64,000 nucleotides of DNA from Stellaceae bacterium. Its GTDB lineage: Bacteria > Pseudomonadota > Alphaproteobacteria > ATCC43930 > CGMCC-115725. The translations under genes were made by a program, and so were the position numbers. The notes under the pieces are model-generated. The model did no database searches and was not told where the DNA came from. It worked only from the letters and a program-made list of their open reading frames with translations. The stretch lies in the NCBI GenBank assembly GCA_036278835.1, contig DASUKH010000133.1:3273-67272 (forward strand), read 5' to 3'. Of this stretch, positions 1,807-60,922 are shown one piece after another (the first letter of the stretch is position 1; each line of letters begins with the position of its first letter).

Positions 1807-4657
1807 AATTCAACGCCTGTTCGATCGCGCGGGCCAGCTTTTGCAGCCCGGCCCTGAGGTCGCCCGACAGGTGCACCCGCAAGGCGCGGCGACCGCGCTC
1901 GGCCAGGACATCAAAATCGCCGCGCGCCTGCGCCGCCTCGACCACGCCGAACGTATATTTCCGCCCCGGCACCGGCAGGTCGGCCGCCGGATCGGCGGTG
2001 ATCTGAAGGAAGACGCCGCTGTTCGGGCCGCCTTTGTAGGCCTGCCCGGTCGAATGCAAAAAGCGCGGACCGAACCCGAGGCAGGTCGCGGCGTGCGTCT
2101 TGTCGCGGATCGCCCGGCGCACCGCCTGCAACGCCGCGGTATGGGCCGGGTTGCGATCGATGTAGGCGAGCAGCGCGACATAATCGCCGGACCGCACCCG
2201 GCCGAGATGCGCCTTCAACGCCGCCGCCAGCGAGCCGGCATGCGGCTTCAGCTCGGCCGCGTTGCGCGGGTCGGCGTAGAGCGCCATCCCGTCGCCGGTA
2301 AAGAACGGCGCCTCCGCCGGCAATGACCCCTTCTCCTCGTAGGCGGCGGTCAATTCGCGGGTCTTGACCTTGCTCGCCTCGACATCGGGCTGGTCGAACG
2401 GGTTGATGCCAATGATCGACCCGGCGACCGCCGTCGCCATTTCCCAGCGGAAGAATTCCTGGCCGATCTGGCCGGGCTCGCCGATTGCGATGCGCACCAC
2501 CGGCTGGCCCGCCGCTTCGAGCGCCGCGACCGCGGCCTCTCGCTCGCGATCCTGGTCAGAGGCAAGCTTCAGATAAGCGAACACCCGGTCGTTGCGGTAA
2601 ACCGCCGGCGGGCCGAGCGGCTCGGCGTCGACCGGGACGATGCCGCGCCCCCGCTTGCCGGTCGATTCGGCGAGCAGCTGTTCGAGCCAGGCGCCGAGCG
2701 CGGCGACCCCGGGCGAAGCGACGATCGTCAGCTTGTCGCGCCCGTGCCGGGCCGCGGCGCCGAGGATCGCGCCGAGCTGCACCCCGGGGTTCTCGGCCGG
2801 CGGCGTGCTCTGGGCGCAGGAGCGCACCATCTCGGCGGCGCTTTCCAGAAATTTTCTTGTATCGAGGCCGATCGCCGCGGCCGGCACCATGCCGAAATCC
2901 GACAGCACCGAATACCGCCCGCCGATCGCCGGCTCGCCGTGGAAAACCCGCCCGAAGCCCTCCGAGCGCGCCATCTTCTCGACCGACGAACCGGGATCGG
3001 TAATCGCGACGAAATGCCGGGCCGCCGCCTCGGCACTGCCGAGCGCCGCCTTGGCGCGGTCGAAGAAATACTGCTTCAGGATATTGGGTTCGAGGGTGCT
3101 GCCCGACTTGCTCGATACGATGAAGAGGGTGCGCTTCAAGTCAATCTCGCCCTCGATGCGGCGCAGTTGCGCCGGGTCGGTCGTATCGACAGCACGCAAT
3201 TTCGGAAAGCCGGGATGCTGCCCGAAACTTTCGGCCAGCACCTCGGCGCCGAGGCTCGATCCGCCCATGCCGAGCAGCAGTGCGTCGGAAAACCCGGCGC
3301 CCTTCACGTCGGCGGCGAAGGCGTCGAGATGCCCCTCCGCCTTCAACTGGGCATCGACGATGGTCAGCCAACCGAGCCAGCGCCCCTCGTCATCCTCGGT
3401 CCACAGGCTCGGGTCGCCGTCCCACAAGCGGCGCACCTTGCCTTCCTTGCGCCAGTCCTCGAGCGCCGCCTTGACCTGATCGTCGAGATCGGCCGGCAGG
3501 TTCCAGCTCATTGCGTTGAGCTTGGCGCCGAGCACCATGCGGCGCTTCTTCTGCACGGCGGCATAGAGCTGGTCGGCGGCGTCGGCGAACAGCCGCACCC
3601 CGTCCTCGACCAGCCGCGCGGTGATGTCGTCGATCGAGATGCCGGACGCCGCGAGGTCCTTCATCGCCGCCTCGGCGCCCGCGACATCCTCTTCGAGGCT
3701 GGCGCGTAGCCGCCCATGGTCGCGAAACGCGTCCATCGTCGCCGGCGGGATCGTGCTGACCGTGTCCGCCCCGATCAGTTCCTCAATGTAGAGAACGTCG
3801 CTGTAGGCCTTGTTCTTGGTGCCGGTCGAGGCCCACAACAGGCGCTGCGTCTGCGCCCCGCGCTGCGCGAGGCGCTGCCAGCGTTCGTCGGCGTGAATCT
3901 GCTGGTAGAGGCGGTAGGCGAGCCTGGCGTTGGCGATCGCGATCCTGCCCTTGAGCCGGGACAGCCGTTCCTTCTCGGCCGGGTCGGGACTGGCCGCGAT
4001 CTTGCGGTCGAGCGCCTCGTCCACCAAGGTGTCGATGCGGCTGACGAAAAAGCTCGCGACGCTCGCCACCTTGTGCGGATCGCCGCCCTTGGCGACAAAA
4101 TCCTCGAGGCCGGAGATGTAAGCGTCGGCGACTTCGGCATAGACCTTCTGCGAAAACAATAGCGTGATGTTGACGTTGATGCCCTCGCCGGTCAGCGTGC
4201 GGATTGCCGACAGCCCCGGCTTCGTGCCGGGGACTTTGACCATCAGGTTGCGGCGATCGATGTTGCGCCACAGACGGCGCGCCTCCTCGACGGTCTCGTG
4301 CGTCTGCATCGCGAGATAAGGCGACACCTCGATCGAAATGTAGCCGTCGCGGCGCTGCGTCTGCTCATAGACGGCATTGAGCGCGTCGGCGCCGTCCTGG
4401 ATGTCGCGGATCGCCAGATCCTCGAACAGCGCGCCCGGATCGAGGTCGCCACGGCCCTCGGCGGCGGCGATCAACGCGTCATAAGCGTCGCCATGGCCGA
4501 TCGCCTTCTCGAAGATCGACGGGTTCGAGGTGACCCCGCGCAGCCCGTCCTCGACAATCAGCCGGGCAAGCCCGCCGCTCGTCAACAGGTCGCGGCTGAC
4601 AAAGTCGAGCCACACCGATTGCCCGTATTCCTGAAGCTGTTTCAGCGGATTGGTCAT
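1805..4657 (-). CDS. bifunctional transaldolase / glucose-6-phosphate isomerase
   Basis: MTNPLKQLQEYGQSVWLDF transaldolase N-terminus and a C-terminal PGI-like half (LLLGMGGSSLGAEV, FIVSSKSGSTLEP). The ORF track starts at a TTG at 4738; I prefer the ATG at 4657 preceded by GAAAGGTGG. Confidence 0.9.
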   Translation of the reverse strand: MTNPLKQLQEYGQSVWLDFVSRDLLTSGGLARLIVEDGLRGVTSNPSIFEKAIGHGDAYDALIAAAEGRGDLDPGALFEDLAIRDIQDGADALNAVYEQTQRRDGYISIEVSPYLAMQTHETVEEARRLWRNIDRRNLMVKVPGTKPGLSAIRTLTGEGINVNITLLFSQKVYAEVADAYISGLEDFVAKGGDPHKVASVASFFVSRIDTLVDEALDRKIAASPDPAEKERLSRLKGRIAIANARLAYRLYQQIHADERWQRLAQRGAQTQRLLWASTGTKNKAYSDVLYIEELIGADTVSTIPPATMDAFRDHGRLRASLEEDVAGAEAAMKDLAASGISIDDITARLVEDGVRLFADAADQLYAAVQKKRRMVLGAKLNAMSWNLPADLDDQVKAALEDWRKEGKVRRLWDGDPSLWTEDDEGRWLGWLTIVDAQLKAEGHLDAFAADVKGAGFSDALLLGMGGSSLGAEVLAESFGQHPGFPKLRAVDTTDPAQLRRIEGEIDLKRTLFIVSSKSGSTLEPNILKQYFFDRAKAALGSAEAAARHFVAITDPGSSVEKMARSEGFGRVFHGEPAIGGRYSVLSDFGMVPAAAIGLDTRKFLESAAEMVRSCAQSTPPAENPGVQLGAILGAAARHGRDKLTIVASPGVAALGAWLEQLLAESTGKRGRGIVPVDAEPLGPPAVYRNDRVFAYLKLASDQDREREAAVAALEAAGQPVVRIAIGEPGQIGQEFFRWEMATAVAGSIIGINPFDQPDVEASKVKTRELTAAYEEKGSLPAEAPFFTGDGMALYADPRNAAELKPHAGSLAAALKAHLGRVRSGDYVALLAYIDRNPAHTAALQAVRRAIRDKTHAATCLGFGPRFLHSTGQAYKGGPNSGVFLQITADPAADLPVPGRKYTFGVVEAAQARGDFDVLAERGRRALRVHLSGDLRAGLQKLARAIEQALN

Positions 4658-5423: not shown

Positions 5424-6596
5424 TCACCCGCGCTTCGGAACACGCGCGATCGCCAGCACCGCGAAGAGGCAGAGGCTCAGGGTCGCGAGCCACCACTCCT
5501 CCCAGATGCCCCAGCCGGACATCGCGATGACCAGCGCGGCGGTCAGGCTGCCGCCGGCCGCCGCGGCATAAGGCGGCGGCCACGCCGCCGCGCCGAGGCG
5601 GCGCCATAACAGCCCGACGAGCAGCGCGAACAGCGCTGCGCCCGGCGCGCCCAATTCGAGCCACACCTGCAGCGCGGCATCGTGCGGATGAAGCGGTAGC
5701 CATTGCTGGCCCGGTCGGATCTCGACCTTGCCGCCGGGGATCAGCCGCGACGAATCGAGACCCCAGCCGGCGAACGGCCGCTCAACGATCCGCTCGCCGG
5801 CGAACGACCAGATCAGCAGGCGGTGCCCGGCCGATTTTTTGAAGCCATCGACCCGCGCGAACACGGCAGGCGAATGCGCCGGCATCGGCAGGGTCAGCGG
5901 CGCCGTCAGGATGCCGATCACGGCGATCGCGGCGATGATCCGCGCCGTCGCCGGGGGCCGCCACCAGACAAGCGCCGCGATCGGCAGGCTCGCCGCCAGC
6001 GCGAGCTTCGCCGTGGTATCGTCGAGCATGCCGACACACGCCGCCATCGCGGCGCCGGCAAGCAGCGCCAACCGAGGCCGCCCGCGGCAGAACAGCAGGG
6101 CCGCCAGCGGCAACGTCGTCAGCGCGAGGCAGGCGGAAAGCTGGTTGAGCCGGGTCTCGGCAAACGGCCGCACCGTCACCAGCCGGCTCAGCGCCCCGCC
6201 GCTCAGGAGATCGAAGAAGGCGAGCGCGACGGCGACCGCGATGCCCGCGGCAAGACACCACGCGAGCCGGCGCGGCGCCCTTATACAGATGCCGGCGCCT
6301 GCCAGCGCGAGGGCGGCGGCGAACAGCCCGGCGAGGCGCAGCGCCATGATGCCGCTGCGGTCGGGGCCGATCGACCACGCCGCCGACAGCGCGCCCCATG
6401 CCAGGATGCCGCCGAGCAGGACGGCCGGCGCCCGCAATCCGGCGAGGCGGCCCGCCGTGCGATCGGCCGCGATGAGGCCGGCCGCGCACAATCCGGCAAC
6501 GGCGTCGAGCGGCGCTGCGCCGCGCGGCACCAGCGCCAATACCGGCGGCAACAGAAACAGCGCGAGATCGAGACCGCCCTCGCACCAGCCGCGCAT
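5424..6596 (-). CDS. O-antigen ligase (Wzy_C)-like polytopic membrane protein
   Basis: Many hydrophobic segments plus a loop region (HRLLIWSFAGERIVERPFAGWGLDSS, LPLHPHDAALQVWLELG) typical of the O-antigen ligase family. Start moved to the ATG at 6596; the 570-aa track ORF extends over the opposite strand of rpsD. Confidence 0.6.
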   Translation of the reverse strand: MRGWCEGGLDLALFLLPPVLALVPRGAAPLDAVAGLCAAGLIAADRTAGRLAGLRAPAVLLGGILAWGALSAAWSIGPDRSGIMALRLAGLFAAALALAGAGICIRAPRRLAWCLAAGIAVAVALAFFDLLSGGALSRLVTVRPFAETRLNQLSACLALTTLPLAALLFCRGRPRLALLAGAAMAACVGMLDDTTAKLALAASLPIAALVWWRPPATARIIAAIAVIGILTAPLTLPMPAHSPAVFARVDGFKKSAGHRLLIWSFAGERIVERPFAGWGLDSSRLIPGGKVEIRPGQQWLPLHPHDAALQVWLELGAPGAALFALLVGLLWRRLGAAAWPPPYAAAAGGSLTAALVIAMSGWGIWEEWWLATLSLCLFAVLAIARVPKRG

Positions 6597-54939: not shown

Positions 54940-55015
<76 letters not shown>

Positions 55016-57392: not shown

Positions 57393-57983
57393 TCACGGCG
57401 TCTTCTTGAAGATCGCGTCGTATGTCCGGCCCTGCGGCGTCGTCAGCCGACCCGCGAGATCGCCGTAGAGCGGCCGGAACCCGAACTGGCTACCATCGGA
57501 ATTCTGGAAGCGCAATTCGCCGCCGTGGACGATGCCGGTGCCGTGCAGCACGCCGCCCGAGCCGTTCGGGTTGGCGGTCATCGGACCAAAGACATAGACG
57601 ATGCGGGCCCTGCCGTCCGGCGCCACGGCTTCGACGATCAAGGCGGCGCACAGTTGCGGCGTCCACGACGCATCGCTCCAGATTCCGACAAAGCGGCGGT
57701 CTTGTTCGGGCGCCGAAGCGGCCTCGACCAGACGGGGCGTCACCGCCTGATGGCAGAAGATGCGCGGCTCGGGCGCGGCGGCAGGTGGCGGGGTCAGCGT
57801 CGCCGCATCGGGGCCGGGCCCCGGCGGCGATGTGGGCGCGGGTTCTATCGGCGGCAGCGGCTCCGGCGCGATCGAGGGCACCGCCGCACCGGGAAAGAGC
57901 GGCACCGGCCCGTCGGGCTGTTGCGCGATGGCGGCGGCCGGCGTCAGCAGCAGAAGCAGCGCGACGGCAAGGCGAACGAGCAT
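57393..57983 (-). CDS. hypothetical secreted protein with a Pro-rich N-terminal region
   Basis: Signal peptide MLVRLAVALLLLLTPAAAIAQQ. No motif recognised. Confidence 0.6.
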   Translation of the reverse strand: MLVRLAVALLLLLTPAAAIAQQPDGPVPLFPGAAVPSIAPEPLPPIEPAPTSPPGPGPDAATLTPPPAAAPEPRIFCHQAVTPRLVEAASAPEQDRRFVGIWSDASWTPQLCAALIVEAVAPDGRARIVYVFGPMTANPNGSGGVLHGTGIVHGGELRFQNSDGSQFGFRPLYGDLAGRLTTPQGRTYDAIFKKTP

Positions 57984-58199
57984 TGAAGGCTCCGAAACGG
58001 GCGGAACGAGCGGCGCAATCCCCCGCTCTCCCCGCCTTCCGCCGGGACAGCGGCTTGGGGATTATACGCCCCCTTGCCGGCAGTCATGGCGAGCGGCGCG
58101 CTAAAATTACCGGGTCGGTTCGCCGGCTGCTTCCCCGGCCCGCGATTTTGCGGAATTATGTAGCTGACTCACCGTTAGGCAACAGCGAGTCTCTCGTCT

Positions 58200-58817
58200 T
58201 CACGGCTCAAGTATTTTAGATATAAGGCCAACGTATGCCGGGTCAAACAGGGTCTTGATATAGTCAACAGGAATACGAAATGCGGTAGCGATCTGCATCT
58301 CGCTATATTTCTTGGCGGACCCATTCTCTATCATGCGACGGCGATCCCGGATCGGGCAAAGCAGCTCTAGGGCGCAAATCTGCGCCGTTCTTTCAGAAAG
58401 AAAGGGACGGTACGCAGCGGAAATCTCCACTGGGTGGGCTGATTGTAATGCTTCTATTAGTCTCTCAATTTCTGGAAAAGATGAAACCTGAACGGTGGAA
58501 TCCTCTTCCAAGCTATGGCAAATCTCTTTACACACAACGAAGCGTGTCCAACAGAAATTTAGGCTGTTGGCATAATCTATTTCAACAACAGTGCCGTTTC
58601 CCGAATATGGGACATACTGCCCTTCGTAACGGCGGAAGCGTCCCCTCACTGGGTTCAGATTCTCGTCTGCTCCGTCCGGATACTTATTAAACCGGATAAA
58701 ATCGATGCCAGTGACCTCAACGATCGCTGCCCGGATATCTTCTAGCTTATATGGGAGATGTCCCGGCGGATGTCTGCGATCAACGATCGCCCGAATCCGG
58801 CGAACCGCATCTAGCAT
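58200..58817 (-). CDS. ImmA/IrrE (COG2856, peptidase M78)-like protein with KExxH in place of HExxH
   Basis: NFCWTRFVVCKEICHSLEED aligns with the family pattern ..RF..aHElgH; SERTAQICALELLCP aligns with E.eAN.FA.eLLmP; SEMQIATAFRIPVDYI aligns with the C-terminal helix. ATG at 58817 preceded by GGGAAGGA. Low-GC codon usage. Confidence 0.6.
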   Translation of the reverse strand: MLDAVRRIRAIVDRRHPPGHLPYKLEDIRAAIVEVTGIDFIRFNKYPDGADENLNPVRGRFRRYEGQYVPYSGNGTVVEIDYANSLNFCWTRFVVCKEICHSLEEDSTVQVSSFPEIERLIEALQSAHPVEISAAYRPFLSERTAQICALELLCPIRDRRRMIENGSAKKYSEMQIATAFRIPVDYIKTLFDPAYVGLISKILEP

Positions 58818-58842
58818 AAAATAATGTCCTTCCCGATAGCAA

Positions 58843-58864
58843 GGCGGGCGCCGAAGCGCCCGCC
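58843..58864 (-). other. intercistronic 9-bp GC hairpin with a UUCG tetraloop (on the transcribed minus strand)
   Basis: GGCGGGCGC-cgaa-GCGCCCGCC on the plus strand, so C(UUCG)G in the mRNA sense. Lies between the 73-aa gene stop (58890) and the ImmA-like start (58817). No U-run follows. Confidence 0.6.
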
Positions 58865-58889
58865 CTCACGCGATCGTAAAGGTAAAAGA

Positions 58890-59111
58890 TTACCCGATCA
58901 ATGGACCAAACGGCTGCGGATCGATATCATGCAGCCACCGATCACTGATCTCACACTCGCCAGCCTTGAGGGAGTCGTCAATACGGTTCATCCCGGACAG
59001 AATCTCGGCCTCCGACAGGCTCCTGGCCTGGAGAACGAACAGCTTCATGTCGATGAGGCCGAGTTCTTTAGCGGCGGCGAGGTTCGCCATGGCTCTATCT
59101 CGCTCGGTCAT
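58890..59111 (-). CDS. hypothetical 73-aa protein, upstream partner of the ImmA/IrrE-like gene
   Basis: ATG at 59111 with GGAGGGAGAGAGG 10-12 nt upstream. MTERDRAMANLAAAKELGLIDMKLFVLQARSLSEAEILSGMNRIDDSLKAGECEISDRWLHDIDPQPFGPLIG. No motif recognised. Confidence 0.55.
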   Translation of the reverse strand: MTERDRAMANLAAAKELGLIDMKLFVLQARSLSEAEILSGMNRIDDSLKAGECEISDRWLHDIDPQPFGPLIG

Positions 59112-59226
59112 GGCACACCAACCTCTCTCCCTCCATCACGTCAAGGGCAGCTACCCGCGCTAGGTCGCGTATAACGCGTCCGAGCCGGATCGAATTCCGC
59201 GATCTGCGAAAATCGTTACGCTGCGC

Positions 59227-59256
59227 ACTATAGGAGGGAACAGAGCGAGCCGTCAA
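59227..59256 (-). promoter_or_regulatory. sigma70-like promoter TTGACG-N18-TATAGT for the 73-aa / ImmA-like pair
   Basis: On the minus strand, -35 at 59256-51 and -10 at 59232-27, about 115 nt upstream of the ATG at 59111. Embedded in the right arm of the 59242-59309 palindrome. Confidence 0.45.
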
Positions 59257-59309
59257 CACGCGCCTTCCGAAACTTTAAGTTTCGTATCGGCGCGTGCTCA
59301 TCTCGCTCT
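59242..59309. other. 68-bp three-tier inverted repeat
   Basis: AGAGCGAG (59242-49) / CTCGCTCT (59302-09); CACGCGCC (59257-64) / GGCGCGTG (59289-96); GAAACTT-T-AAGTTTC (59269-83). Lies between the two cassette operons. Confidence 0.7.
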
Positions 59310-59345
59310 CCGTCAGAGGCCCAGAGGGCATACGTCTCTAGCTCG

Positions 59346-59639
59346 TTACACGCTGCTCCGTCCGAAATAGAAACCGGTAGCCGCCCCCACCAGCGCGACG
59401 GTTGGTCCCAAAAAGATCGTCGCCATCTCCCTGACCGCCTCGACACGCTCGGGGAGGGCTGCGCAATTCGCGGATAGGAACCAAAGACCGAAGCCGATCT
59501 CGGCCGCGAGAATCACGACCAAGCCGATAGCCAGCAGCCCACGAATCGGCTCGCGGAAGCGTGGCTCCTTCTGGCCAACGGCCGGCGCGGTCGGCTGAGC
59601 GACGACCGGAACTGATGGAGGGTCTATGGCAACCACCAC
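59346..59639 (-). CDS. small membrane protein, two predicted TM helices
   Basis: IRGLLAIGLVVILAAEIGFGLWFL and MATIFLGPTVALVGAATGFYFG. GTG start (59639), so the start is uncertain. Overlaps the preceding ORF by 16 nt. Confidence 0.55.
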   Translation of the reverse strand: MVVAIDPPSVPVVAQPTAPAVGQKEPRFREPIRGLLAIGLVVILAAEIGFGLWFLSANCAALPERVEAVREMATIFLGPTVALVGAATGFYFGRSSV

Positions 59640-59851
59640 GGACCACGGCGGCCATTAATGTGGATCGCACGATGCAAAGCACGAGCAGCTGCCTCATCGA
59701 TCGGCTTCGTCGGTTCATCTGGCGGCGCCGCTGGGTGTGCCGGCGCTGCTGTGTCTGGATTGATTGTCGGCACGTTGCCGATGCGCCGTCCGGGCAGAGG
59801 CGGCCCAACGTCGGGCGGTGTAGGGGGGCCTACGAAGCCGTCGTCGATCAT
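59624..59851 (-). CDS. possible Pro-rich 75-aa protein
   Basis: The ATG at 59851 follows the RHH stop in TAAGGGGAGGCGCGGCCCAACCATG. MIDDGFVGPPTPPDVGPPLPGRRIGNVPTINPD... Low-complexity sequence, so coding status is uncertain. Confidence 0.35.
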   Translation of the reverse strand: MIDDGFVGPPTPPDVGPPLPGRRIGNVPTINPDTAAPAHPAAPPDEPTKPIDEAAARALHRAIHINGRRGPWWLP

Positions 59852-59870
59852 GGTTGGGCCGCGCCTCCCC

Positions 59871-60164
59871 TTAGATAAGAATGATCTCTCTGATCGTGTG
59901 ATCGGGCGTCTCAATCAGAATGCGGGCACCTTCCTGACGGGCTTTGATCAGAAAGAGTTCGGTGCCCAACGCACGTCGCACGACCTCAGCAAATGAGACA
60001 CCACCCCTCAAGGCAGCGATGTCCTCAAGTACCTTTCTCGCTTCCGGGGATAGCCGGAGCGTCAAGCGGGAACCGCCCTCGACATATTCGGGGTTTTCCG
60101 CTTCCTCATTAGAGGCCCGACTGGCGGCATTCGGGTCCCGAGGCGCGGTATTCGGGTCAGCCAT
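59871..60164 (-). CDS. ribbon-helix-helix (CopG/Arc/MetJ-type) protein with a disordered N-terminal tail and a C-terminal beta-rich extension
   Basis: RLTLRLSPEARKVLEDIAALRGGVSFAEVVRRAL fits the strand-helix-helix pattern. AGGAG lies 7 nt upstream of the ATG at 60164. Confidence 0.7.
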   Translation of the reverse strand: MADPNTAPRDPNAASRASNEEAENPEYVEGGSRLTLRLSPEARKVLEDIAALRGGVSFAEVVRRALGTELFLIKARQEGARILIETPDHTIREIILI

Positions 60165-60195
60165 GCGTTACTCCTGAGCTCTAGTCGCGGCGGTG

Positions 60196-60224
60196 ATACT
60201 ACCGCCACTTAGTCGTCTGTTCAA
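60196..60224 (-). promoter_or_regulatory. sigma70-like promoter TTGAAC-N17-TAGTAT for the RHH operon
   Basis: On the minus strand, -35 at 60224-19 and -10 at 60201-196, about 30 nt upstream of the ATG. ACGCC/GGCGT half-sites at 60224-28, 60234-38 and 60246-50 abut the -35. Confidence 0.45.
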
Positions 60225-60577
60225 CGCCTAAAAGGCGTCAAAATGACGCCATGGTGGCAGAAATTTAGTGTCGCTTTGGGGGTATGGTAGGGGGTCGCGC
60301 TATTTTTTAGCTATTTGCGCGATCTTGCTACGTTGCAATTAAGCAACATAAACCATTAAATTGAACGGCGCAGCGCCTACCGTGCAATTAATTTCCGGTG
60401 TCGAGATGGACATTTCTGACGCCGATCGCCTCCATGACCTGGAGGAAAAAGACCGCTTTGAGCCCCACGTTGTCACAGCCCAATCAGCGGCGCATCTGGG
60501 CGGCCGACCGTCGCGATTCGGGCGCGAGGCGTCTTCTAGTTGGGTGATACAAATACATAATTCCGCGATTTTGCGGC

Positions 60578-60922
60578 TCAGAGATCGGTCTCGGCGGTTT
60601 GGCCGGGCATCAGCTGCGCCTTGGTCCACAGCGACCAGACGCCGGCGACCGGCGCCTTCGGGTTGGGATCGTGGCGCCAGCACAGGGTGGCGCCGTCCGG
60701 CACGACGAACGATTGCGGTGTGTCCTTGTGCATCACCAGCTTGCGGCTGCTGATAAAGCCGTCGGTGCGGCTGTCGCAATCGGCGCGCCGGGTCAGGACG
60801 ATTTCGACATTGACCCGGTCCCAATAGGGATCGTTAAGCGTCAGCCGCCCGGCGCCGGGCGGCAGCGCGGAACAGGCGCTCAGCACCAGGAAGCTCGCCG
60901 CGATGGCGCCCCGCAACCGCAT
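60578..60922 (-). CDS. small lipoprotein
   Basis: MRLRGAIAASFLVLSAC lipobox. ATG at 60922 preceded by GGAGGGGGA. Its stop lies 6 nt outside the cassette duplication. Confidence 0.65.
   Translation of the reverse strand: MRLRGAIAASFLVLSACSALPPGAGRLTLNDPYWDRVNVEIVLTRRADCDSRTDGFISSRKLVMHKDTPQSFVVPDGATLCWRHDPNPKAPVAGVWSLWTKAQLMPGQTAETDL

Follow-up and report, generated by a model that had tools for sequence, protein, structure and literature searches.

The stretch of DNA analysed here, called the window throughout, comprises 64,000 nucleotides from a Stellaceae bacterium (contig DASUKH010000133.1 of assembly GCA_036278835.1, positions 3,273 to 67,272). Towards its right side lies a low-GC cassette of five small genes, all on the minus strand, which occupies positions 58151-60565 (2415 bp) once its boundaries are parsed against related ends in other genomes. 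A preliminary description made from the letters alone had proposed that this is a cargo cassette without a transposase, bounded by transposon ends and resembling the mobile insertion cassettes (MICs). That proposal has held up, with ends that can be linked to the IS1595 family of insertion sequences (ISs), with an empty site, and with no recombinase found in the window. The boundary features are the left and right terminal inverted repeats (IRL and IRR), each flanked by one copy of a target-site duplication (TSD); other loci are given by handles beginning with L.

58143..58150, no strand: left copy of the 8-bp TSD CGATTTTG, identical to 60566-60573 and present as a single copy in the empty-site contigs L001-L006
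58151..58173, plus strand: IRL CGGAATTATGTAGCTGACTCACC, matching the consensus CGGAATTATGTAGCTGTCTCACC at 22/23 positions and identical to the inverted repeats of L019, L018, L043 and L065
60543..60565, minus strand: IRR, reading CGGAATTATGTATTTGTATCACC on that strand, matching the consensus CGGAATTATGTAGCTGTCTCACC at 20/23 positions, with the terminal 12 nt perfect
60566..60573, no strand: right copy of the 8-bp TSD CGATTTTG, identical to the left copy at 58143-58150

The terminal inverted repeat CGGAATTATGTA is perfect over 12 bp and imperfect (20/23) over its full length, and a repeat finder followed it imperfectly to about 24-34 nt, in keeping with the weaker inward similarity of the ends that had been pointed out earlier. 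The strings on which the preliminary description was built, GATTTT followed by GCGGAATTATGTA at 58144-58162 and TACATAATTCCGC followed by GATTTT at 60554-60572, are present at exactly those positions. A search of the window for the 13-mer GCGGAATTATGTA with up to two mismatches returned only 58150-58162 (+) and 60554-60566 (-), both at the cassette ends. The parsing of these strings as a 13-bp inverted repeat starting with GCGG and a 6-bp duplication had to be given up. The conserved terminus is CGG and not GCGG, because the base outside the C varies among some 58 related ends (see below), and since C-GGAATT is conserved while the preceding base is variable, the boundary resolves into an 8-bp TSD, CGATTTTG, next to the CGGAATTATGTA repeat with its 12 perfect base pairs. 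The repeat finder reported a direct repeat of 14 bp, CCGCGATTTTGCGG, at 58140-58153 and 60563-60576. Behind both the "13 + 6" parse and a parse with a 14-bp core lies a coincidence: on either side the three adjoining flank bases (CCG/CGG) are the same as the tips of the element, an extra 3 + 3 bp of identity that is not general at other insertion sites of related elements.

The base composition changes at the same two points. The GC content is 0.562 in the cassette and 0.696 and 0.685 in the two 3-kb flanks, which makes the cassette the lowest-GC 2.4-kb stretch of the window; inside it, 300-bp windows range from 0.46 to 0.65. A step at both boundaries, from about 0.69 outside to 0.562 inside, had been anticipated and was confirmed, and the earlier estimate by eye (45-55% inside, 65-70% outside) was right about the step and slightly low about the interior. 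Scans for Rfam families and tRNAs gave nothing inside the cassette, the tRNA-Lys at 54940-55015 being the only hit. The right TSD copy lies 4 bp downstream of the stop codon (60578-60580) of a minus-strand open reading frame (ORF) at 60578-60919.

The preliminary description had also predicted an empty site with a single copy of the duplication. It was sought by an exact look-up of the 196-aa product of the flanking ORF at 57393-57983 (-), called a lipoprotein in that description and without a Pfam match, and seven short Logan contigs were returned. In six of the seven (L001-L006) the gene for a 114-aa neighbour follows about 170 bp on, and a single CCGCGATTTTGCGG stands at the junction, which corresponds to the window minus 2423 bp. 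The reconstructed empty site, ...CCCGCGATTTTGCGGCTCAG..., was found with 0 mismatches in L001, L004 and L006 over 1071-1401 bp, with L001 identical to the window without the cassette at 1401/1401 positions; the predicted allele thus exists in independent short assemblies. Because such empty-site alleles with a single TSD match the flanks with 0 mismatches, the cassette is a genuine and very recent insertion polymorphism. The same alleles bear on the idea that an ordinary horizontally acquired island, without any transposon origin, is surrounded by chance repeats. Short repeats are indeed common, 102 inverted pairs being listed in 3 kb, but those considered here sit exactly at the boundaries that the empty-site alleles set independently, and the 23-nt end has about 58 counterparts elsewhere that form a family, so that the probability left to chance is negligible.

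This family of ends was recovered with the pattern GGAATTATGTANNTGNNTCACC, built from the positions common to both cassette ends and scanned against 185,579 GTDB species genomes (one per species). With 18 specified bases, 596 Gb and both strands, about 17 matches would be expected by chance on our uniform-composition estimate; 64 stretches matched. About 58 of the 64 lie in metagenome-assembled genomes (MAGs) of soil Alphaproteobacteria, among them Stellaceae, Xanthobacteraceae, Rhizomicrobium, Bauldia and Pseudolabrys, and these agree also where the pattern left the base free (a C ahead of GG, GCTGTC where the pattern has N); their consensus is C-GGAATTATGTAGCTGTCTCACC. The few matches from other phyla show no agreement at the unspecified positions. 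When the 8 nt outside CGG were compared, perfect 8-bp direct duplications were seen in 15 of 18 inverted end pairs, the window included, at many unrelated sites. The duplications of the related pairs are GGAGTTCC, TTGAACTC, CAAAACCC, CAAATAAG, TAGATTCC, GAAATCTG and GAATTCCA, and further CTTAACCT, AGCAGTTC, TGAAATTC, GTGAACTC, GAGAATTC, AAAATAAG and AAAATGAC; the consensus over all sites is S-AAATTT-S, a short A/T-rich core within GC-rich surroundings. The flanks of L019 (3042/7776) have 6 bp, CCACTG, in common at a 2-nt offset, and those of L016+L033 (7015/12757) have no duplication in common, perhaps after a rearrangement or because two different elements are paired there. On plasmids of cultured bacteria, relatives such as that of Skermanella rosea pSR-1 (CGGCATTATGGTGCTGTAGCC...) end in a similar way, and the related ends in cultured strains (Skermanella, Rhodovastum) read CGGCATTATGG; the closest transposases on these plasmids are at most 56% identical. 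No description of a transposon family with this 23-nt end signature was found in the literature searched.

Many of the related elements encode the enzyme that the cassette lacks. ORFs of the L062, L043 and L019 elements match Pfam DDE_Tnp_IS1595 (E 5e-40, 2e-37 and 7e-38, respectively) together with Zn_ribbon_IS1595; over the family transposases the DDE_Tnp_IS1595 matches range from E 1e-37 to 1e-42, and NCBIfam NF033547, "IS1595 family transposase", scores 137-144 bits with a cut-off of 75. Full-length homologues were located by tblastn at nine further loci (L013, L016+L033, L025+L050, L036, L048, L055+L027, L058+L014, L072 and L073) and fragments at four (L021, L024, L030+L054 and L075+L057). 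An IS1595-family DDE transposase is therefore encoded at at least 12 loci with these ends, which is what the recommended check for an autonomous IS with the same ends was meant to find. Members of the IS1595 family usually generate 8-bp TSDs and have a Zn-ribbon plus DDE architecture (PMC8101967).

The autonomous relatives have a common layout: IRL, cargo, a DUF6471 gene on the cargo strand, the gene for a DDE transposase with an N-terminal zinc ribbon on the opposite strand, an ORF of about 150 aa, and IRR. The DUF6471 gene is divergent from the transposase gene in nearly all autonomous members. In L062 it lies at 3390-3707 and encodes about 105 aa, and homologous genes are present in about 20 other loci. 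Its product probably corresponds to the passenger that PMC11891212 describes for ISNha5 as a "transcription regulator", or else is an accessory transposition factor. The cargo varies from one element to the next, with an Eco29kI endonuclease, a C5 methylase and Vsr in L019, a C5 methylase in L062, and in other members a BglII endonuclease, an MT-A70 methylase, Fic/DOC, a cytidine deaminase, DUF2513, DUF488, DUF2335 and nested IS elements. The largest members, of about 9 kb (L025+L050 and L030+L054), hold nested insertion sequences. Pfam matches of their ORFs include the IS4-like DDE_Tnp_1_4, the IS21 IstB with a Mu-transposase C-terminal domain, DUF772 (IS5-type) and a serine recombinase, and in L030+L054 the IS1595 transposase gene itself is split.

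The combination of variable duplications and DDE transposases is what decides against a site-specific integration, in which CCGCGATTTTGCGG would be the core of an att site and the cassette a CIME- or IMEX-like island that lacks its own integrase and depends on a tyrosine or serine recombinase from another locus. The direct repeat is truly 14 bp long and itself a 4-6-4 palindrome, and the joined ends would form a 13-6-13 arrangement, TACATAATTCCGC-GATTTT-GCGGAATTATGTA, that would resemble lox, dif or the attP of large serine integrases. But the same ends occur at dozens of sites with differing 8-bp duplications, at least 12 of the loci link them to DDE IS1595 transposases, with no consistent link to integrases, and the extra CCG/CGG identity of the flanks is not shared by the other sites. 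The att-site reading was set aside on the strength of the variable TSDs and the DDE transposases, and is very improbable. A casposon-like duplication of 14-15 bp was also considered, and was dropped on the same two observations. By making the target look like a 4-6-4 palindrome, the 14-bp repeat mimics a recombinase core and could mislead automated att-site callers.

The cassette itself has no recombinase gene. The preliminary description had said so of its ORFs, and scans of these against Pfam, NCBIfam, PHROGs and PADLOC brought none to light; a tblastn search with three family transposases over all 64 kb of the window gave noise only (best E 0.076). What the cassette does retain is the end of a neighbouring gene.

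60388-60456, minus strand: 3' stub of a DUF6471 gene, about 22 codons with the natural stop, recognised by tblastn, DNA identity and reading frame

Against the DUF6471 protein of L062, tblastn found 13/18 residues identical (AVFFLQVMEAIGVRNVHL, E 5e-5), and the minus-strand translation of the stub, ...GLKAVFFLQVMEAIGVRNVHLDTGN*, agrees with the DUF6471 C-terminus and its natural stop. Over about 65 nt (60388-60458) the DNA is 76-81% identical to the DUF6471 genes of L048, L025+L050, L068, L047 and L062. An in-frame stop lies just upstream and the start codon is absent, while the strand and the placement of the stub relative to the cargo are the same as in L062 and L019. Because this stub remains next to the right end, the cassette is clearly a deletion derivative, and a single deletion accounts for its structure: beginning inside the DUF6471 gene, of which it took the greater part, it ran through the whole transposase gene and ended about 109 bp from the tip of IRR, with both terminal repeats and the five passenger genes surviving.

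Similar decay is seen elsewhere in the family. L065+L037 is a 3.1-kb member with an intact TSD, a deaminase cargo and a 34-aa DUF6471 stub in which the transposase is missing; L021 (2.6 kb, intact TSD) keeps a 60-aa transposase remnant, and L032 (2.0 kb) also has an intact TSD. L017 has the size of a miniature inverted-repeat transposable element (MITE), with 336 bp at 5472-5807 and the TSD AAAATAAG, and another minimal member, L053 (4682-4726), consists of 45 bp, two abutting inverted repeats inserted at the mnmE stop codon, with AAAATGAC as a perfect 8-bp TSD. A 53-bp unit of two inverted repeats at L042 6378-6430 lies within a larger palindrome and has no TSD. L031 and L032 were considered as copies of one non-autonomous relative in a single genome, and were rejected as recent copies with ends just 77% identical.

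Taken together, the cassette is read as a non-autonomous, cargo-carrying derivative, of MIC type, of an IS1595-family element with passenger genes, and this reading is given a probability of about 85%. An IS1595-type DDE transposase would have bound the CGGAATTATGTA... ends, cut the target with an 8-bp stagger and inserted the element. Since the cassette has no transposase while its relatives encode one, it is a non-autonomous derivative and not an IS, and in its present form it would move only with a cognate transposase supplied in trans, for which reason it would be, functionally, a mobile insertion cassette. Several observations weigh against this reading. No cognate transposase lies within the 64-kb window; three cassette proteins, looked up exactly, are not on record in other assemblies; and two scans of JGI metagenomes with cassette-specific 23-24-mers gave 0 matches, no second copy being found. 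A clean 8-bp TSD is missing from three of the 18 related pairs (L016+L033, L019 and L042), and the inner half of IRR has three mismatches to the consensus, which may affect its quality as a substrate. Finally, the assignment to a subgroup is putative and goes by end motif: the ends begin CGGAATTAT, which fits the ISfinder motifs of ISNha5 (CGGnnTT) and ISNwi1 (ggnnatTAT).

A trans-mobilised origin of the cassette is plausible from its structure. It competes with decay in place, in which a complete autonomous IS1595 element would have inserted at this locus and lost its transposase afterwards, the deleted cassette never having transposed. This alternative concerns the trans-mobilised step only and leaves the identification of the element untouched. 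Just one copy of the cassette has been seen, the DUF6471 stub shows an origin by internal deletion, and decayed relatives that keep their TSDs intact are common in the family, which would follow from frequent deletion in place; for these reasons its chances are put only a little short of even. Insertion and deletion would then both have to fit into a short time, given that the flanks are 100% identical to the empty alleles (over at most 1.4 kb), and the terminal 12 bp of both inverted repeats are still perfect; neither point is decisive. That the insertion is young and its 12-nt tips are perfect favours insertion in trans over loss in place only mildly.

The MIC-type cassette carries two cargo modules. 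The second, a three-gene operon, begins with the gene for a ribbon-helix-helix (RHH) protein.

58200..58817, minus strand: 205-aa divergent ImmA/IrrE-like (Peptidase_M78-like) gene, recognised by profile, by the Pfam matches of relatives and by Foldseek
58890..59111, minus strand: 73-aa partner gene upstream of the ImmA/IrrE-like gene, recognised by conserved order
59227..59256, minus strand: promoter-like site TTGACG-18-TATAGT upstream of the 73-aa/205-aa module, from a consensus scan (10/12 matches)
59346..59639, minus strand: gene 3 of the RHH operon, 97-aa small hydrophobic and probably a membrane protein (judged by eye), 64% identical over 75 aa to its L079 counterpart (E 1e-32)
59624..59914, minus strand: gene 2 of the RHH operon, 96-aa proline-rich protein, 51% identical to a 72-aa L079 gene in the same position (E 1e-18)
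59871..60164, minus strand: gene 1 of the RHH operon, 97-aa ribbon-helix-helix (CopG-like) regulator with a weak RHH_1 match (E 0.011)

Searches of the five ORFs against Pfam, PADLOC, PHROGs and NCBIfam gave nothing above threshold and only the weak RHH match; conservation supports all five as genes. The preliminary description had spoken of uncharacterised cargo in two small operons, and the division into two modules stands, while an ImmA/IrrE-like protein and an RHH regulator can now be recognised in them. Both modules resemble the small regulator/effector pairs that serve mobile elements for addiction, immunity or defence, and a role of this kind is inferred for them.

For the 205-aa protein an exhaustive search returned 440 representative homologues at E<=1e-3, as against four from a word-indexed search; members of this family are always accompanied by an upstream gene for about 70 aa. 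In an alignment of 80 sequences of the family, K97, E98 and P155 do not vary and the motif reads VVCKELCH in the consensus, with two flanking Cys. The protein accordingly has KExxH (K97-E98-x-x-H) at the place where the zinc-binding HEXXH motif of Peptidase_M78 would be expected, and thus departs from the defining motif of that family. The Pfam model PF06114 (Peptidase_M78) is matched by 20 of the 80 relatives (best E 2.3e-7), the window protein itself staying below any Pfam threshold, and a profile search of the PDB gave a weak match to IrrE (3dte) in which KELCH is aligned with HEISH. A confident AlphaFold2 (AF2) model of the protein has a pLDDT of 94.7, and its top Foldseek matches, the only credible structural neighbours, are the PprI/IrrE structures 8sln, 3dti and 3dte, with probabilities of 0.98-1.0 but TM-scores of just 0.42-0.45. 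On the basis of this model and the profiles, the protein is read as a putative divergent member of the ImmA/IrrE-like group in which the first zinc-ligand His is missing; it may be a pseudo-protease, or it may have a different metal site.

A 70-73-aa partner gene followed by a gene for about 205 aa is found in the same order in L009, L010, L011 and L012, and the partner in L011 shares 38% identity with the 73-aa protein (E 2e-14). The 73-aa protein has no family match in Pfam, PADLOC, PHROGs or NCBIfam, and no helix-turn-helix (HTH) or XRE signature was detectable. A gene with a TIR_2 domain adjoins a pair of this type in L008 and L009. No cassette inverted repeat was found around the homologues of the 205-aa gene in L008-L012, which lie in separate low-GC islands. 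The conserved pair of the 73-aa protein and the KExxH protein could be an uncharacterised two-gene immunity or toxin-antitoxin (TA)-like module.

The closest counterpart of the RHH operon is in L079, where all three genes lie inside an autonomous IS1595 element, the RHH protein being 69%, the proline-rich protein 51% and the hydrophobic protein 64% identical. This element has 27-bp inverted repeats beginning CGGAATTATGTAGC, a TSD CGAAAATC, and a transposase 60% identical to the other transposases of the family. For the RHH protein 48 homologues were found, PF01402 being carried by the more distant ones. A close one, at L080 5001-5252, is 70% identical and is found in a phage- or plasmid-like context with a DnaB-type helicase and an SU10 adaptor; because it sits outside a transposon, the RHH module circulates among different kinds of mobile element. 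The DNA upstream of the operon (60220-60264 and 60328-60391) holds the palindrome AACGCCTAAAAGGCGT, itself about 78% conserved with its counterpart in L079, and a pair of 15-nt direct repeats, CTACGTTGCAATTAA and CTACCGTGCAATTAA, with 49 bp between them. The palindrome and the repeats are possible operator sites for the RHH protein.

Two target sites recur among the related elements, as follows.

Insertions at the mnmE stop codon: L020, L022, L028, L030, L034, L038, L040, L041, L047, L053, L059, L060, L070 and L074, plus the MITE-size L017
Insertions in the ComM-like gene: L013, L018, L024, L025+L050, L043, L062, L072, L073 and L076

In about 14 independent MAGs an element with these inverted repeats sits exactly at the stop codon of mnmE (trmE), where the flank ...CGCGAYTTCTGCATCGGCAAGTGA encodes FCIGK* and the stop codon falls within the TSD; the adjacent gene is MnmE by Pfam. 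The end of this gene is also known as the integration site of SGI1-type islands. About nine further insertions split a ComM-like (Mg_chelatase/ChlI) gene at one spot, ...GACGAGCTGCCGGAATTC..., which is taken to be the Walker-B coding region. This target sequence itself includes the element end motif CGGAATT.

A more far-reaching proposal would join these strands into one undescribed IS1595 lineage of soil Alphaproteobacteria, strongly selective for its targets, with a conserved DUF6471 gene and with small defence or addiction-type cargo (restriction-modification genes, Fic/DOC, deaminases and ImmA-like pairs, for instance), whose transposase-less derivatives, the cassette among them, would be actively moved in trans. 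Target selectivity would be represented in it by the repeated independent insertions at the mnmE stop codon and the comM Walker-B sequence. As a joint claim, selectivity included, it is unlikely; were it true, the 73-aa protein and the KExxH ImmA/IrrE-like protein would make up a new two-gene immunity or toxin-antitoxin-like system. The identification of the cassette as a MIC-type derivative has consequences of its own. It provides a clean natural example of an IS with passenger genes decaying into a MIC, for which the empty site, the deletion scar and the autonomous relatives are all available. With the 23-nt end signature, a sizeable family of cargo transposons can be recognised in soil Alphaproteobacteria that are uncultured, and the signature should be useful for the annotation of elements and of small accessory modules, some of them defence-like, that are now labelled "hypothetical".

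The 205-aa protein finds its best structural match in the ImmA/IrrE modules (COG2856, Peptidase_M78), such as ImmR/ImmA of ICEBs1 and DdrO/IrrE-PprI of Deinococcus. The metal-site helix can be aligned, and here, too, the gene is encoded with a small partner on a mobile element. The differences are the invariant Lys in place of the first His of HEXXH and a partner in which neither HTH nor XRE could be detected.

The cassette as a whole is to be compared with three kinds of element, none of which is new: the IS1595 elements with passenger genes and the MICs are established categories, and no concept is changed by the present case. The term tIS (transporter IS), for ISs with passenger genes, was defined on the IS1595 family with ISNha5 as an example (PMC3129680; PMC11891212), and the ISfinder groups ISNha5 and ISNwi1+ are credited to Siguier, Gagnevin and Chandler (2009) in the accounts given by PMC3129680 and PMC11891212. 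Like the tIS of this family, the cassette has an 8-bp TSD, passenger genes, an alphaproteobacterial host and terminal inverted repeats in common with elements that encode DDE_Tnp_IS1595 and Zn_ribbon_IS1595; unlike them, it is not autonomous, having neither the transposase nor most of the DUF6471 gene. With MITEs it shares the lack of autonomy and the boundaries formed by IS ends and TSDs, and its own family has members of MITE size (L017 with 336 bp, L053 with 45 bp). The cassette itself was rejected as a MITE, being neither miniature nor non-coding at 2415 bp with five genes.

The third likeness is to MIC231 of the Bacillus cereus group, with which the cassette shares IS ends with a TSD, the absence of a transposase, unrelated passenger genes and a presumed dependence on a transposase in trans. 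For MIC231 mobilisation in trans has reportedly been shown experimentally; for the cassette it is plausible. MICs and MITEs alike count as derivatives without a transposase that a cognate enzyme can activate (PMC3129680), and MIC231 was derived from IS231 according to De Palmenaer et al. (2004), as cited in PMC3129680. The parent of MIC231 belongs to the IS4 family and its host to a different phylum, whereas the parent of the cassette is an IS1595 element, and in the cassette, unlike MIC231, the origin by deletion is directly visible as a gene stub.

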